64,000 nucleotides of DNA. Origin: Bacteroidales bacterium. GTDB lineage: Bacteria > Bacteroidota > Bacteroidia > Bacteroidales > UBA4417. A program made the position numbers and the translations under genes. The notes under the pieces are model-generated. The model searched no databases. It saw nothing but the letters and a program-made list of their open reading frames with translations, and was not told where the DNA came from. Positions 1 through 10,128 of the stretch are shown here, piece after piece; position 1 is the stretch's first letter, and each line of letters opens with the position of its first letter. Location of the stretch: assembly GCA_963677975.1 (NCBI GenBank), contig OY782677.1:2524229-2588228 (forward strand). The letters run 5' to 3'.

Positions 1-1500
1 CGAACCGGAAGTGAATTATCATAATGGAGCCACTTTCCTCTCTTAGCAGGTTTATGTTTGGCAATACGGCTGAATAAGATACTGTGTGCTGCAGAAGCAT
101 TTGTTGTTTCGAAGAGTTGTACCGGGGAATTTAGTATTGTCCAGTCACCGCCATCCTCGAAAGATGCTGCGGCTTTAAAATACGGATTGTCAACGCCTGT
201 TGTATAATTAGCATATCTGTTGCTGAAGTTCGCGGGTGCATCTTTCCAATTCAGGTCGATAGAAATCTCGCTGAGCGATTTTGAAAGAGCTTCGTCACAG
301 CCTACGATCCACTTTGATCCTGTAACCGGTTGCGGCCCGAAAGGCATAAAAGCTTTTTTAGGATCCAGGTTGCCGAGATCGTTCCGCAGCTGGAGCGATT
401 TATATCCGGAGACTTCTACCTGGATACTTAATGAATTGATTTCAATATCTTTAAAGAGGTTGTACCCATTGCCTGTATTGTCTTTCTTTAACATTACCTG
501 CAAAACCGGCTCTGCAACATCGAATCCTGACGAATGCACCTTGATGCTGAAATCCACAATGGCAGGCATTGCCTGGTTGATTGTGAAACTCAGATTTATT
601 TCACCTTCTTTCCCGGTTTCAAGGGTAAGACCTAAAGGGCCTATCCAGCCTTTTTCACCCGTAATGTATGCCTCGAAAGCATTATCAAAAATGGAAATAT
701 CTGTTTCTGTATTCCCGTTTATGACCAGGTTCAGATTAACTTTCCGGGTTCCTTCTTTCATCCGGAGCACTGGTGATGAAAGTGCAAATCCTAGGCCTGC
801 TTCAGGCATGTTCTCATTCCCGAATGCCGGCCATTTCGACTCAGGGTTTTCAAACTTCTTACCCTTTCCATCAGCCGAATTGGCCACAGGGGCAAATCGC
901 ACAGTTCCATTGTCACTGGTATCAACAAATACAGAGCAAAGGAAGCTGACTGTGCTGTTGTTGATGATGGTTGTTCCGGTAGGGTAGTAGAGGAGTTCAG
1001 CCTTGGTATCATCCTTTCCGGCACTGAATGCTACTATAGGTGTTATTTCGGTCGGGTTTTCATTTTTCTTTAATTCAATAACAGTATGGACCTTATCGGC
1101 AATAGCTGGCTTTTTAGCCAGGTGAAGCACATCTTTAAAGTAGAAATTGAGGTGGCCGCCGGTTATTCTATTTATGACTTCCTGTGGTACCTTATATAAT
1201 TCGAGGAACGAAACGAACAAAGCCAGGTGAGGAGTCAGTTTCCCGTCCTTTTGCTCAAGAATTCTCAGGATTTCATCTTTACCGGCGGGAAAGAAATCTT
1301 TCCAGTTATCCGAAGTGCCTGAGATAGTATCGTTGTAATGTTTCACAAATTCCGCAAACCTGCCTGCAAACAGCATCAGGTCTTCGGTAGTTCGTTCGTC
1401 AACATCGGCAAAATGCACATCGAGCCCGGCAGGCATGCGCTGCGACTGGCTCTGGCCTGTCCGTTGAAGGAACTTTTCTATGTTGTCCTTTTCACTCATG
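1..1500 (-). CDS. Baseplate-J-like protein (Afp11/Pvc11/gp6-like), N-terminal ~500 aa only; the gene runs off the left edge
   Basis: The minus-strand frame is open where hand-translated (about 960-1500), starting from the ATG at 1500, and is presumed open to position 1: MSEKDNIEKFLQRTGQSQSQRMPAGLDVHFADVDERTTEDLMLFAGRFAEFVKHYN... It is absent from the ORF track because its stop lies off-window. The N-terminal pattern (T.SQ.QR ... VDER...L..FA) is typical of eCIS baseplate-J proteins. It sits directly after the gp25-like gene. The + strand ORF 220..987 is its shadow. Confidence 0.75.
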
Positions 1501-1510
1501 CCGGATAATC

Positions 1511-1969
1511 TTATGGGTTGTTGAAATCAAAGGTTCGCCGTACTTCGCTGCTGTCGGTCGTATAAAAAGGATACACAAGGTTGAACCTTGAGTTAGTGCC
1601 ACGGACTTCATAATCGAGGAGTATGTCTATCCTGCCTTCATAAATTCCGGAGGTATCCAGTTCAACCGAAAGCAGGTTTATTCGAGGTTCGTAAATCAGG
1701 ATTGTATTTGTGATACGGTCTTTGAGGAATGTAATCATGGTGGTGCTCAAAGGTTCGAAAAGCAGTTCGTGCATATCGAGGCCATACTTTGGGTTCAGGA
1801 ACCTTTCACCCGGGGTTGTTCCCATCAATATAATTAAACTGGCCTGGATATCTTCTTCGTCGGATGTCATCACAACATTCCCGGGACTGTTCAACGGGAA
1901 TTCAGGCGGGAAACTCCAGCCTGTTCCCAGGAAAGAATTGTAAGTGATTTTATTTTCGCTGCTGTCCAT
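1511..1969 (-). CDS. GPW/gp25-like baseplate wedge / sheath-initiator protein (Afp9-like)
   Basis: This is track ORF 1511..2143. I use the internal ATG at 1969 (MDSSENKITYNSFLGTGWSFPPEF...), which avoids overlap with the PAAR gene. Gp25-like signature: DEEDIQASLIILMGTTPGERFLNPKYG. Confidence 0.85.
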   Translation of the reverse strand: MDSSENKITYNSFLGTGWSFPPEFPLNSPGNVVMTSDEEDIQASLIILMGTTPGERFLNPKYGLDMHELLFEPLSTTMITFLKDRITNTILIYEPRINLLSVELDTSGIYEGRIDILLDYEVRGTNSRFNLVYPFYTTDSSEVRRTFDFNNP

Positions 1970-1983
1970 AATGGCTTCTGTTA

Positions 1984-8367: not shown

Positions 8368-8933
8368 TTGTTATTCAGGTTTGCATTAATAATGGTAATT
8401 GGCGGTTGAATAGCGGTAGAAACTTCGTCCTTTATTATTACTAGCCTCATCTTGTAAACCAGCGACGGAAGATGTTTTGCCCCAAGGAATGTCCATACCT
8501 GGTTGATCTGGTCGTAACCAAGGTTCTGTAATTCGAGGGTAAGTCTTTCGATACGTGCATCTAGCGCCGGAAATGAACCGGGAGTAAAAGCAGGATGCGA
8601 CTGGAAGAAGGTGAGCAGGTACGAAATGCACTTCAAGGCTTCGTTGTACTGGCTGAAGTTGGCTGCAAACATCACATAGAGATTGATTTTGATATCAGGC
8701 TCCGTAACAATATGTTGTCCGTCTTTTAGAGTGTATTCCGGAAGTTGCGATTTGAATGTGCGGTCTTCCTCGATGTTGATAACTGTAACAGCAACCGTTT
8801 CTTCCCCGAAAGCATACTTTCCGGTATCATCAACCATTTTGGTGAGTTTCACATCAGGTGCCGAAGGACCAATCCGGGAGTGAAGGAAAGTGCCCAGTTC
8901 GTCGGTTATGAATTTTAATGCAAGGTCAATCAT
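8364..8933 (-). CDS. DUF4255 / Pvc16-N-like tail terminator (cap) protein (Afp16-like)
   Basis: The track ORF starts at a TTG at 8951. The ATG at 8933 gives MIDLALKFITDELGTFL..., a typical DUF4255 N-terminus. Size is about 190 aa. Confidence 0.8.
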   Translation of the reverse strand: MIDLALKFITDELGTFLHSRIGPSAPDVKLTKMVDDTGKYAFGEETVAVTVINIEEDRTFKSQLPEYTLKDGQHIVTEPDIKINLYVMFAANFSQYNEALKCISYLLTFFQSHPAFTPGSFPALDARIERLTLELQNLGYDQINQVWTFLGAKHLPSLVYKMRLVIIKDEVSTAIQPPITIINANLNNK

Positions 8934-8976
8934 GTAAAAGAATTTAGTCAATGATTATTGCTGATTCGATGACTTC

Positions 8977-10128
8977 CTAATTTTTATAATTCCGGACTAC
9001 TTTGATAAAGTTTGTACCTGCTTCTTCATTAGCAGGCGCATTTATACAATCAAGGTAAGCCTGTGCAATTCGTTTGAATGCATTTGAGAATGGATGCAAT
9101 TCGTCGGCCCACTCGTTTTTAAGAACTGCTCCGCGACTGTCAATGTGGTAAACATAAATGCGTCCCTTTAGTTCATTGCAGTGTGTTGCAACCTTTATCA
9201 GCATTTCGTTAAAATGATATATCATTGCCGACAAAATGCTTTTCTGTAAAACAGGGTCGTAGATGCCTTTTCTTGTAAGCGGGTAGTATAACCAATCGCC
9301 GTTTGAGCCGGCCCTTAATATAAACTTGAAAATGTTCCTGTCGTTTGAAGGAATAGCGAAATCATACCCCTGGGTGATAATCTTCATATCATCGAATTTT
9401 CCGCTTAGGTCTATACTCCTGAAAAACACCTTGTACATAAGTTCGAAAGTGTATAACAGTGCCATAAAATCCTTGTGCAGATATTTATTGCCAATCATTA
9501 TCATTTCGGCCCGTTTCTCACGAGTTATGTCCTTATTCCCAAAATCCTGAGCAACCACTTTCCGGTAAAGTATCTGATCATCATCGGTAATGGTTTTATC
9601 CACAAGTGCAGGTTTGTTCACCAGTGTGCTGAGCCTGCCACCGCCCACCAGGTCATTTCCCCCGCCGCTGATAAGGAAAATTTCAGGTTGGTAGGTCGTA
9701 AGTTCTCCAATATATTGTTCTTCATAAATGATGTTGGCAATCCAGTCGCCACCATAGGCCAGGCTGTAAACAGGATTATCAGACAGTTTTTTTATCCAGT
9801 CGAGTATGTCGTTCAGGAATATGGGATACTCAAACCACGAATCACCCTCGGCAATAATTAATTTTTTTCCATCACGATAGCCCGGCTTTAAGATATTTTG
9901 TTTGAATGCAGCATTTTTCCGTTTTCGGGCAAACCGGTTCATCATACCCAAAAAGCCAGCAGAAGCATCTGACTTATTCAGGAGTTCACTGTCATTTATA
10001 TCAAAAATCCGCCTGATAAATCCCCTGTACTCTGTGCGGTCGATCAGGTTCATGAGCTTATCCATCTCACTTTCCGTGATCGTGGCATGCAATAGTGCAC
10101 TTATCAGTTCTTCCTTTGACTTTTCCAT
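8977..10128 (-). CDS. SGNH/GDSL-family hydrolase (lipase/esterase-like) with ~95-aa N-terminal extension; first gene of the eCIS operon
   Basis: The catalytic blocks appear in the canonical order: block I IIAEGDSWF, block III ISGGGNDLV, block V WADELHP (DxxH). There is no signal peptide. The gene ends 43 nt upstream of the DUF4255 gene. Confidence 0.75.
   Translation of the reverse strand: MEKSKEELISALLHATITESEMDKLMNLIDRTEYRGFIRRIFDINDSELLNKSDASAGFLGMMNRFARKRKNAAFKQNILKPGYRDGKKLIIAEGDSWFEYPIFLNDILDWIKKLSDNPVYSLAYGGDWIANIIYEEQYIGELTTYQPEIFLISGGGNDLVGGGRLSTLVNKPALVDKTITDDDQILYRKVVAQDFGNKDITREKRAEMIMIGNKYLHKDFMALLYTFELMYKVFFRSIDLSGKFDDMKIITQGYDFAIPSNDRNIFKFILRAGSNGDWLYYPLTRKGIYDPVLQKSILSAMIYHFNEMLIKVATHCNELKGRIYVYHIDSRGAVLKNEWADELHPFSNAFKRIAQAYLDCINAPANEEAGTNFIKVVRNYKN

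Follow-up and report, generated by a model that had tools for sequence, protein, structure and literature searches.

Does the run of minus-strand genes at the left end of this stretch of DNA (the window, 64,000 nt) encode a released injection particle, a prophage tail or a type VI secretion system (T6SS)? The host is an uncultured Bacteroidales bacterium from a freshwater or wetland source, environmental rather than gut, and is probably anaerobic. [quoted passage not shown] Twelve consecutive minus-strand ORFs do lie there, but eleven of them, within 1-8933, are contractile injection system (CIS) genes, and the twelfth, encoding an SGNH-like protein, is a neighbour. Judging from homology, window 1-8933 (minus strand) very probably holds the promoter-proximal stretch of an operon, chromosomal and intact, that encodes a clade Ib CIS. 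Systems of this kind have already been catalogued in Bacteroidota and Bacteroidales (PMC7394362, PMC8213781), and the locus adds a sound, though ordinary, example of a well-described CIS type.

Gene content and order in the window

The CIS genes run in the order Cis16A, Cis16B, Cis2, Cis1, Cis5, Cis6, Cis7, Cis8, Cis10, Cis9 and the N-terminal part of Cis11, and are given here from right to left with the region upstream of them.

10129..10908, no strand: intergenic region, 780 nt, between the SGNH gene and a divergent DjlA-like gene; no ORF
8977..10128, minus: SGNH/GDSL-like hydrolase, 383 aa, directly upstream of the CIS operon; motifs and predicted fold
8364..8933, minus: Cis16A cap or tail terminator, 189 aa, opening the CIS operon proper; Pfam Pvc16_N (DUF4255) 5.2e-32
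7354..8367, minus: Cis16B cap adaptor, 337 aa; homologue profile and AF2/Foldseek fold match
5911..7341, minus: Cis2 contractile sheath, one gene, 476 aa; Pfam Phage_sheath_1C 3e-14, Phage_sheath_1 1e-8
5419..5853, minus: inner tube protein, 144 aa, Cis1 by position; Pfam Phage_T4_gp19 3.9e-48
4973..5419, minus: second tube paralogue, 148 aa, Cis5 tube adaptor by position; Pfam Phage_T4_gp19 1.8e-38
4808..4969, minus: Cis6 plug, 53 aa; Pfam DUF5908 2.1e-15
4136..4804, minus: Cis7 tube initiator with C-terminal LysM-like domain, 222 aa; Pfam CIS_tube 2.7e-43
2391..4133, minus: Cis8 VgrG-like spike, 580 aa; Pfam Phage_base_V 8e-25, NCBIfam vgr_GE 5e-61
2263..2390, minus: VgrG-PAAR spacer with a CGTAAAT x3 heptamer repeat; TRF repeat at 2267-2288
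1984..2262, minus: Cis10 PAAR spike tip, 92 aa; Pfam PAAR_motif 3.3e-21
1511..1969, minus: Cis9 gp25-like sheath initiator, 152 aa; Pfam GPW_gp25 6.3e-20
1..1499, minus: Cis11, N-terminal 499 of 1036 residues, with the beginning of the spike-cage extension; the gene leaves the window at its left edge

From the SGNH gene onwards the gaps measure 43, -4, 12, 57, -1, 3, 3, 2, 128, 14 and 11 nt, so the near-zero spacing claimed earlier holds for most junctions; the exceptions are the VgrG-PAAR spacer (128 nt), the junction of sheath and first tube gene (57 nt) and that between the SGNH and cap genes (43 nt). Both overlaps cited in its support are real: an ATGA at 8364-8367, where the cap stop overlaps the start of Cis16B, and a TAATG at 5417-5421, where the stop of the first tube gene overlaps the start of the second by one base.

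The operon genes are under purifying selection, with dN/dS of 0.00-0.15 in all 11 genes compared, and gene lengths are unchanged across relatives. The ATG start of Cis16A is the same in the gene calls of another stretch of this genome (L001), and Cis8 truly starts with the ATG at 4133 rather than the TTG at 4256, its product being called as 580 aa in all relatives. The Cis10 protein is identical in relatives at 93% identity; the spacer preceding its gene is 229 nt long in these, 128 nt here and 69 nt in a relative whose sheath is 84% identical.

Protein identities and the rest of the operon

Profile searches recovered the cap, sheath, tube, PAAR and gp25-like families that the first-pass annotation had named by motif, and matches to solved CIS structures agreed with them on an eCIS-type gene set. 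The best of these matches came throughout from AlgoCIS of Algoriphagus machipongonensis (PDB 7ADZ/7AEB/7AEF; PMC8894135), a clade Ib eCIS from the same phylum, Bacteroidota, and from tCIS of Anabaena PCC 7120 (PDB 7B5H/7B5I; PMC8894136), which is thylakoid-anchored; AlgoCIS was best or near-best for every structural protein. On sequence grounds we place the system in clade Ib, the group of AlgoCIS. Under the operational definition in PMC8213781, which asks for 10 or more core genes with homologues of Afp12, Afp14 and Afp16 among them, the locus also counts as an eCIS.

Cis16A matched the DUF4255 protein of SalCIS (3e-19), the AlgoCIS cap (1.3e-17) and tCIS All3327 (1.4e-17). Three genes had been left without a name: the 383-aa SGNH neighbour, the 337-aa Cis16B and the 53-aa Cis6. 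A profile of 24 Cis16B homologues found the SalCis16b cap as its best sequence match (1.3e-8) and the AlgoCIS cap adaptor at 7e-6, and the AF2 model (pLDDT 89.7) was closest in Foldseek to the tCIS cap complex (7b5i_AB, 1e-16), followed by the AlgoCIS cap adaptor (7adz_1A, 1e-8). A DUF3244-like Ig domain (weak Pfam match) is inserted at about residues 112-205, and this middle block is missing from shorter family members. Cis6 matched the AlgoCIS 'inner protein' Alg6 (7.6e-8) and tCIS Asl3322 (5.7e-5); its assigned role rests on that of Alg6 as the spike-cavity plug (PMC8894135).

The Cis2 sheath aligned with that of AlgoCIS (2e-138) and, over its full length, with that of tCIS (3e-133), and more weakly with Pvc2-4 and Afp2-4 (1e-40 to 1e-66). 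Among its best 120 homologues (69-100% identity) none is labelled Bacteroides or Parabacteroides. The naming of the two tube paralogues follows gene order: the 144-aa protein matched NCBIfam TIGR02241 (2e-38) as well as CIS5_fam and CIS1_fam under their cutoffs, and the 148-aa protein matched CIS5_fam at 6e-19, also under its cutoff. For the LysM tube initiator, the C-terminal 68 aa of Cis7 gave a weak Pfam match (Phage_tail_X/LysM, 0.003), and the call was secured by end-to-end alignment with the AlgoCIS LysM protein Alg7 (4.2e-44); tCIS All3321 followed at 1.6e-39. The VgrG-like spike call was upheld through Phage_base_V, while Phage_GPD, the profile first suggested for it, stayed under its cutoff (2e-4).

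VgrG, PAAR and gp25/TssE-like proteins are common to T6SSs, weak NCBIfam T6SS matches occur here, and the shoulder domain of the AlgoCIS fibre Alg19 is TssK-like in structure (bioRxiv 10.1101/2025.10.08.681156), all of which could suggest a Bacteroidota T6SS of subtype iii. The sheath, however, is one Phage_sheath_1 protein rather than TssB/TssC, and the tubes are gp19-type rather than Hcp. These two families refute a T6SS-iii, as the first-pass annotation had held; a tape measure and DUF4255 cap are present besides, the T6SS-specific NCBIfam matches all lie far under their cutoffs, and we give this reading next to no probability.

The distal half of the operon was correctly predicted to lie left of the window. 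L001, 100% identical to the window, carries the complete Cis11 gene and extends the locus through Cis12 and an Alg19-like fibre to the start of the tape measure, and L005, from a 93%-identical relative, extends it through Cis12, the fibre, the CIS_TMP tape measure and the AAA+ ATPase to a cargo-like gene; beyond the start of the tape measure, the genes described here, ATPase and cargo candidate included, are thus those of the relative. The full order continues after Cis11 with Cis12, the Cis19 fibre, Cis14 (tape measure), Cis15 (ATPase) and cargo-like genes. The baseplate-J call for Cis11 is right for the whole protein, in which the Baseplate_J domain spans residues 784-961, left of the window, but residues 1-499 within the window have no Pfam match. 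Full-length Cis11 matched Alg11 (1.2e-163), whose cage domain is residues 278-643 (PMC8894135), and tCIS All3317 (3.6e-139); Pvc11 and Afp11 matched over residues 650-1000 only. Cis12 (872 aa) has its best match, at 3e-148, in the AlgoCIS/tCIS group. The N-terminal half of the 920-aa fibre (about 490 aa, shoulder and neck) matched Alg19 at 2e-58, and its C-terminal half has no recognisable domain.

Phage tails contain homologues of the sheath, gp19 tube, gp25, baseplate J, VgrG-like hub and LysM initiator, as expected if this were the tail module of an intact or defective contractile-tailed prophage. Yet neither the 9-10 kb to the left nor the right flank holds capsid, portal, terminase, integrase or lysis genes. 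Every ORF scanned on the right is chromosomal housekeeping (DjlA-like, M90 peptidase, GH3, DnaX, GH20, T9SS plug), and the chromosomal neighbours are the same in the relative with the 84%-identical sheath. The operon moreover contains the CIS-specific families Pvc16_N, CIS_tube, DUF5908 and CIS_TMP and the AAA+ ATPase. A prophage, which the first-pass annotation had likewise discounted, is effectively refuted already, and we regard it as exceedingly unlikely.

In gene content the AlgoCIS structural set is matched here by one contiguous operon (Cis16A, 16B, 2, 1, 5, 6, 7, 8, 10, 9, 11, 12, 19, 14, 15), including the cap adaptor, the plug, a long Cis11 (1036 versus 1050 aa) and an Alg19-type fibre. 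Unlike in AlgoCIS, the 476-aa sheath lacks the outward domains that Alg2 (692 aa) has in addition, the cap adaptor has the additional Ig-like insert (337 versus 284 aa), and the fibre is shorter (920 versus 1443 aa), homologous in its N-terminal part only and devoid of the Ig/PKD-rich part. The cargo candidate combines OmpA and zincin features without DUF4157, and the AlgoCIS host is a marine aerobe whereas the host here is freshwater and probably anaerobic.

The compact sheath is nearly equal in length to that of tCIS, and cap, cap adaptor, plug, Cis7, Cis11, Cis12 and the N-terminal part of Cis19 are homologous, but All3317 has about 150 extra N-terminal residues that Cis11 here does not. 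SalCIS of Salmonella enterica subsp. salamae and T6SS-iv of Amoebophilus asiaticus, membrane-associated members of clade Ib (PMC13266070), have the double cap, single sheath and clade Ib baseplate in common with this locus; sequence similarity to them is below that to AlgoCIS and tCIS (sheath 3e-102, Cis11 3e-64, Cis12 1e-44). BIS of human-gut Bacteroides and Parabacteroides (PMC7394362), from the same order as this host, has a like cluster (DUF4255, sheath, two tubes, LysM, spike, tip, gp25/gp27/gp6-type baseplate, FtsH-like ATPase), with a single sheath gene also in its architecture 2, but the present locus differs in its environmental origin, its sheath homologues and the lack of a DUF4157 gene in the covered part. 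All Afp1-16 core functions of the clade Ia eCISs of Serratia and Photorhabdus (Afp/PVC) are represented, although those systems have three sheath genes rather than one and an Afp13-type fibre, and their cap gene comes last in the operon rather than first; here the cap is short and split into cap and adaptor, and Cis11 is about 400-430 aa longer (cage).

Mode of action

By homology with AlgoCIS, Cis9, Cis11 and Cis12 would form a baseplate around the Cis8-Cis10 spike, with Cis6 as plug, and nucleate a tube of Cis7, Cis5 and Cis1. The tape measure would set tube length, the Cis2 sheath would polymerise around the tube, Cis16A and Cis16B would terminate the particle, and the lumen would take up cargo. 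Particles assembled free in the cytoplasm would be released by lysis; trimeric Cis19 fibres would then bind a target surface, the baseplate open and the sheath contract, driving spike, tube and cargo into the target.

Downstream of the ATPase gene lies the most likely cargo candidate, an OmpA-like/zincin protein of 506 aa with a disordered N-terminus, an OmpA domain and an HEFGH motif; such a cargo suggests the cell wall of bacteria as target. A 676-aa protein that carries the eCIS_core/DUF4157 effector-marker domain and adjoins a separate partial CIS baseplate cluster (L012) shares 46% identity with it. Next after the candidate comes a protein with three transmembrane (TM) helices, which might hint at an association with the envelope.

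Clade Ib also contains systems that are not released, namely T6SS-iv, tCIS and SalCIS, the last being membrane-proximal (PMC8894135, PMC8894136, PMC13266070); the mode of action cannot be read from the gene content alone, and we infer the extracellular one. The machine might instead stay on or near the producer's inner membrane and fire through the envelope on contact, as T6SS-iv and SalCIS do, in which case the OmpA/zincin and three-TM proteins would be peptidoglycan-remodelling or anchoring factors rather than cargo. SalCis20 is a three-TM peptidoglycan-hydrolase partner in a system for which particle release was undetected (PMC13266070), a peptidoglycan-binding OmpA-like domain protein and a three-TM protein do lie downstream of the ATPase here, and the non-released tCIS also has Cis19 (PMC8894136). 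Nonetheless, there is no Cis13- or SalCis13-type gene between Cis11 and Cis12, and no SalCis20-like protein (Sec signal, hydrolase domain, three TM helices) was recognised. Cis11 and Cis19 are without TM-like segments, Cis12 has one borderline hydrophobic stretch, and the lone hydrophobic stretch of the 506-aa protein is probably no membrane helix since it is Ser/Thr-rich in its homologue, which itself has the eCIS_core effector domain. The structural protein set is that of the released AlgoCIS (PMC8894135), which binds bacterial cells through its Alg19 fibre (bioRxiv 10.1101/2025.10.08.681156), and an Alg19-type fibre is present here. We therefore consider a cell-associated machine unlikely, if with an appreciable chance, and extracellular action the most likely mode by analogy.

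A cytoplasmic or internal-membrane CIS that serves stress-induced death of the producer rather than attack, as in tCIS or the Streptomyces CIS, would agree with a sheath equally similar to those of tCIS and AlgoCIS and of compact tCIS size, with a cap adaptor whose closest fold match is that of tCIS and with the occurrence of cap-adaptor homologues in Nostoc. It is nevertheless very improbable: the anchoring features of tCIS, a Cis13 fibre with a TM helix (PMC8894136) and the extension that brings its Cis12 to 1335 aa, are missing, Bacteroidales have no thylakoids, and a spike tipped by PAAR, together with a fibre and an effector-like gene, fits outward attack.

The upstream gene and its intergenic region

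The SGNH-like protein gave a Pfam Lipase_GDSL_2 match of only 0.006, but its 26 homologues share an invariant GDSWF (Ser97), GGGND and D342-x-x-H345, and the best fold match of its AF2 model (pLDDT 85) was a GDSL-like lipase (4q9a, 5e-4). We rejected it as a CIS component: the gene is missing from the syntenic CIS locus of the relative with the 84%-identical sheath, and homologues in six other genomes nowhere adjoin a CIS. From these comparisons it appears to be a lineage-specific neighbour or recent accessory gene, not part of the CIS core.

The 780-nt region upstream of it is presumed to be the promoter region; within 10129..10908 no Rfam family was found, and a sigma-70-type consensus scan did not exceed shuffled expectation. 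The same region contains an 11-nt direct repeat at 10739-10761.

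Gene content of the operon and its continuation to the left

The first-pass annotation had described a twelve-gene contractile injection system (CIS) at the left end of the window, and an ORF scan did find 12 consecutive minus-strand ORFs across positions 1-10128. The first of these, an SGNH hydrolase gene at 8977-10128, is not part of the machine, for reasons set out below; the other 11 are CIS genes.

CIS genes in the window, in operon order, with their best supporting matches
8364-8933, minus: Cis16A cap, 189 aa; Pvc16_N/DUF4255 5e-32, AlgoCIS cap 1.3e-17
7354-8367, minus: Cis16B cap adaptor, 337 aa; profile and fold matches
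5911-7341, minus: Cis2 sheath, 476 aa; Phage_sheath_1 / 1C, AlgoCIS 2e-138, tCIS 3e-133
5419-5853, minus: tube paralogue 1; Phage_T4_gp19 4e-48
4973-5419, minus: tube paralogue 2; Phage_T4_gp19 2e-38
4808-4969, minus: Cis6 plug, 53 aa; DUF5908 2e-15, Alg6 8e-8
4136-4804, minus: Cis7 tube initiator, 222 aa; CIS_tube 3e-43, Alg7 4e-44
2391-4133, minus: Cis8 VgrG spike, 580 aa; Phage_base_V 8e-25, vgr_GE 5e-61
1984-2262, minus: Cis10 PAAR, 92 aa; PAAR_motif 3e-21
1511-1969, minus: Cis9 gp25-like, 152 aa; GPW_gp25 6e-20
1-1499, minus: Cis11, N-terminal 499 aa; Alg11 1e-163 with the full protein

Both junctions cited in the first-pass annotation are present, an ATGA at 8364-8367 on the minus strand (a 4-nt stop/start overlap) and a TAATG at 5417-5421 (a 1-nt overlap). 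Successive gaps across the 12 ORFs, in operon order, are 43, -4, 12, 57, -1, 3, 3, 2, 128, 14 and 11 nt, and the operon is thus tightly packed except at the 128-nt VgrG-PAAR spacer. The VgrG start is the ATG at 4133, the same call in all relatives, and not a TTG upstream of it.

The VgrG-PAAR spacer (2263-2390, minus strand) is also the sole indel-rich spot of the operon, measuring 128 nt in the window, 229 nt in two relatives that are 93% identical (L002 5908-6136 and L005 3232-3460) and 69 nt in a relative whose sheath is 84% identical. Both sequenced versions of the spacer end in runs of a (C/A)(G/A)NAAAT heptamer directly before the PAAR start, with CGTAAAT occurring three times at 2267-2288 in the window, and these heptamers could be a regulatory or slippage-prone element. 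Promoter and terminator scans returned counts no higher than in shuffled sequence, and the sole match in an Rfam scan was a tRNA far from the locus.

Several of the gene calls required more than a Pfam match. The NCBIfam CIS1 and CIS5 models could not tell the two tube paralogues apart, because both score under cutoff. The LysM assignment made earlier is weak in Pfam, but over its whole length the 222-aa protein concerned can be aligned with Alg7, the LysM protein of AlgoCIS. The 53-aa gene, which had been left unnamed, matches not only the AlgoCIS plug Alg6 but also the tCIS counterpart Asl3322 (6e-5). For the 337-aa protein between cap and sheath, Pfam gives a weak DUF3244 match. A profile built from 24 homologues matches the cap adaptors of SalCIS (1.3e-8) and AlgoCIS (7e-6), and the structures that best match the confident AlphaFold model of the protein (pLDDT 89.7) are those of the tCIS cap complex (1e-16) and the AlgoCIS cap adaptor (1e-8). 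This protein is Cis16B carrying an extra Ig-like insert; its family numbers about 1,900 cluster representatives, some without the insert.

The first-pass annotation had placed the missing half of the system to the left of the window, and that prediction was correct, as the remaining CIS genes are carried by L001, a stretch of the same genome that reaches further left, and by the 93% relative L005, a GTDB species representative. L001 was reached by finding the PAAR protein on a 3.0-Mb ENA contig, and is 100% identical to window 1-12262. In it the gene cut off at the window edge encodes a 1036-aa Cis11, which matches AlgoCIS Alg11 (1050 aa) and tCIS All3317 (4e-139). The Alg11 match falls in two stretches, the better one pairing residues 545-1034 with 550-1032, whereas Afp11 and Pvc11 align with Cis11 only from residue ~650. 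The part of Cis11 inside the window, residues 1-499, has zero Pfam matches. Since the spike cage of Alg11 is formed by residues 278-643 (PMC8894135), the extra N-terminal part of Cis11 appears to correspond to the spike-cage region.

Immediately after Cis11, with nothing in between, L001 encodes an 872-aa Cis12 (Alg12 match 3e-148). L001 also encodes a protein of 920 aa that, over its initial ~490 residues, matches the AlgoCIS fibre Alg19 in the shoulder and neck (2e-58) as well as tCIS Cis19, and L001 holds the beginning of the tape-measure gene (CIS_TMP). The remainder of this gene, together with the ATPase and cargo genes, is known from L005. There CIS_TMP (2e-86) is followed by genes for an AAA+ ATPase, for a 506-aa protein that combines an OmpA domain with an HEFGH motif and for a 313-aa protein in which three segments are TM-like, after which the contig ends.

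Class of the system and its probable deployment

The cluster holds 12 Afp-type cores, homologues of Afp1, 2, 5, 7, 8, 9, 10, 11, 12, 14, 15 and 16, 9 of which lie inside the window, and the operational definition of an eCIS is at least 10 such cores per cluster, with homologues of Afp12, Afp14 and Afp16 among them (Geller et al. 2021, PMC8213781). The Afp12 and Afp14 homologues are Cis12 and CIS_TMP, left of the window; that of Afp16 is the Pvc16_N cap within it. Three features point to clade Ib: a two-protein cap made of the short Pvc16_N protein Cis16A and the adaptor Cis16B, the DUF5908 plug Cis6, and a long Cis11 that, judging by its length and its match to Alg11, would include the spike-cage extension. 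The PDB matches, which rank SalCIS behind AlgoCIS and tCIS and put PVC/Afp last, lead us to infer the same placement.

A contractile tail could instead belong to a prophage, but the right flank is chromosomal (among others, DjlA-like, M90 peptidase, GH3, RES-Xre pair, DnaX, GH20 and T9SS plug protein genes). No capsid, portal or terminase gene occurs on either side of the locus, the left side having been followed to the L005 contig end, and up to that point the left flank consists of CIS genes and two accessory genes, nothing else. T6SS subtypes i-iii are likewise rejected: with one Phage_sheath_1 protein as its sheath and gp19-type tubes, the locus has neither TssB/C nor Hcp, and T6SS-specific NCBIfam models score far under their cutoffs on the VgrG, PAAR and gp25 proteins. 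Neither the flanks nor the sheath and tube families therefore held what the first-pass annotation had said would overturn its reading in favour of a prophage or a T6SS.

How the particle is deployed is the main uncertainty of our explanation. Clade Ib takes in the released AlgoCIS and MACs, and also T6SS-iv, tCIS and SalCIS, for the last of which release was not detected (PMC13266070). A tCIS-like arrangement, which would agree with the compact sheath, is rejected too, as the locus has no Cis13 with a TM helix and no extended Cis12 (1335 aa in tCIS, 872 aa here), and neither Cis11 nor Cis19 has TM-like segments (PMC8894136). Within the overall explanation we lean towards an extracellular mode, to which the AlgoCIS-type structural set, the Alg19-type fibre, the lack of Cis13 and the Cis11 and Cis19 proteins free of TM-like segments would all point.

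The steps from assembly to firing can be inferred by homology with AlgoCIS (PMC8894135; bioRxiv 10.1101/2025.10.08.681156). The spike (Cis8 and Cis10, plugged by Cis6) and the wedges (Cis9, Cis11 and Cis12) would nucleate a tube built from Cis7, Cis5 and Cis1, its length set by the tape measure. The Cis2 sheath would then form around the tube, Cis16A and Cis16B would cap the particle, and the tube lumen would be filled with cargo. Once Cis19 trimers had bound a target, the baseplate would open, and sheath contraction would push the tube and spike into the target.

Such clusters have already been catalogued in Bacteroidota, and specifically in Bacteroidales, and the host order and gene content here fit BIS architecture 2 (BIS, PMC7394362), with no Bacteroides or Parabacteroides labels among the top sheath matches. 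Compared with AlgoCIS, the locus has a compact, tCIS-like sheath, a cap adaptor with an Ig-like insert, a shorter fibre whose C-terminal half is unrecognisable, and a cargo candidate without DUF4157; these differences are matters of degree. The interest of the locus is comparative and in engineering use rather than in surprise, and alone it opens no new question. Hundreds of clusters of this sort have been catalogued, and few characterised. To these the locus adds one intact, selectively maintained and probably clade Ib system, carried by an uncultured Bacteroidales lineage of freshwater or wetland. Its comparative value lies in a sheath that is compact and tCIS-like alongside a baseplate, cage and fibre of AlgoCIS type, in the short fibre with its unrecognisable receptor-binding half, and in a candidate payload that corresponds, minus DUF4157, to an effector which bears this domain elsewhere. 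Such traits could help define the modular parts of clade Ib systems, which is relevant to the engineering of programmable injection particles.

Accessory genes at the two ends of the operon

The gene at 8977-10128 encodes an SGNH-type hydrolase of 383 aa. Blocks I (GDS), III (GxND) and V (DxxH) are all present, as an invariant S97 in GDSWF, as G156-G157-N158-D159 and as D342-x-x-H345. The Pfam score is under cutoff, no Pfam or NCBIfam model matches the family above threshold, and by fold the protein matches a GDSL-like lipase only weakly (5e-4, TM 0.57 on target). The protein has no signal peptide, carries an N-terminal helical extension of ~90 aa, is called cytoplasmic, and belongs to an esterase family with >600 members in Bacteroidota. 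A place for it in the CIS core is contradicted by its homologues (38-61% identity), 0 of 6 of which adjoin CIS genes, and, decisively, by the 84%-sheath relative. Its chromosomal neighbours are those of the window (MacB/FtsX, Xre, RES, CxxCxxCC and DjlA-like genes), and its cap gene follows the DjlA-like gene by ~640 nt with no SGNH gene between. Because this syntenic locus does without it, the SGNH gene is a lineage-specific insertion upstream of the operon, placed between it and the conserved DjlA-like neighbour, although with a gap of 43 nt it may possibly be co-transcribed with the CIS genes. An exact 11-nt direct repeat, AAATATTTAAC, occurs twice at 10739-10761, within a 780-nt intergenic region upstream of both the SGNH gene and the DjlA-like gene that diverges from it.

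At the other end, the 506-aa protein encoded after the ATPase lies outside the window and was seen in the 93% relative only. It has a disordered Pro/Ala-rich N-terminus ahead of its OmpA-like domain and HEFGH motif. On L012, an unrelated metagenome contig, a 676-aa protein (7359-9389) is 46% identical to it and shares the same body with an N-terminal eCIS_core (DUF4157) added; with eCIS_core, OmpA domain and zincin motif, it is the domain-complete counterpart of the L005 protein. Its gene is convergent with an adjoining partial CIS baseplate cluster at 9625-17247 (Baseplate_J, 1009 aa, then proteins of 853 aa and 679 aa). In AlgoCIS the cargo of the tube lumen consists of DUF4157 proteins, which are also recognised as a marker of eCIS effectors (PMC8894135, PMC8213781). 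The 506-aa protein is therefore the best cargo candidate, as its homologue both bears this marker and sits beside a CIS cluster. The peptidoglycan-binding type of its OmpA-like domain hints at a bacterial target. Its one hydrophobic stretch might suggest a membrane anchor, which is made unlikely by the 46% homologue, where the stretch is not hydrophobic and eCIS_core is present.

The last operon gene in L005 (17777-18718) encodes the 313-aa protein, which has three TM-like segments, no Pfam family and no homologue among the other loci compared; it may serve in immunity, as a holin-like protein or as an anchor.

We think it improbable that both accessory ends have been rewired, the 3′ OmpA-like/zincin effector having lost DUF4157 yet still being delivered and a cytoplasmic SGNH esterase having recently been captured at the 5′ end as an accessory factor or cargo. 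Were this so, the rewired 3′ end would mean that loading can proceed without DUF4157 and that the payload is antibacterial and directed at peptidoglycan.

Selection, spread and flanking genes

All 11 CIS genes are equal in length to their counterparts in the 93% relative L002. Between the two, dN/dS runs from 0.00 (PAAR) to 0.15 (plug) and dS lies at 0.06-0.40, so that purifying selection acts on the operon. None of the sequencing runs containing the sequence is labelled RNA.

Base composition does not mark the operon as a recent horizontal acquisition, the GC content of the CIS part being 0.452 against 0.424 ± 0.015 (maximum 0.457) in 9-kb windows elsewhere. On a wider scale, sheaths 70-77% identical carry the labels Verrucomicrobia, Desulfobulbus, Desulfuromonadales and Saccharophagus, and cap-adaptor homologues at 40-47% identity come from Nostoc, Myxococcus stipitatus, Manganitrophaceae and Competibacteraceae. 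These two lists of homologues indicate that the compact-sheath CIS subtype is widely spread across phyla, which fits the cross-phylum mobility known for such systems (PMC8213781).

A RES toxin/Xre-MbcA-ParS antitoxin pair, overlapping by 4 nt, lies at 16015-16892 on the minus strand, and the 84%-sheath relative has it beside its CIS locus too. Between such conserved neighbours the window has extra genes relative to that genome, at 11817-15495 and 17222-18349 (an M90 peptidase, a GH3 beta-glucosidase with a PA14 domain and an IMPDH-like gene), and the CIS flank is therefore a local hotspot at which genes are gained and lost.

Further to the right, a 1577-aa ORF (49420-54153, minus) with zero Pfam matches has a signal-peptide-like N-terminus and long low-complexity and Ala/Glu/Lys-rich coiled stretches. 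Next after it, a 790-aa secreted-looking protein (54510-56882, minus) gives a weak Rcc01698_C match only. Together these two genes span the stretch where, within the window, GC peaks (0.46-0.48) and AT skew is strongest.
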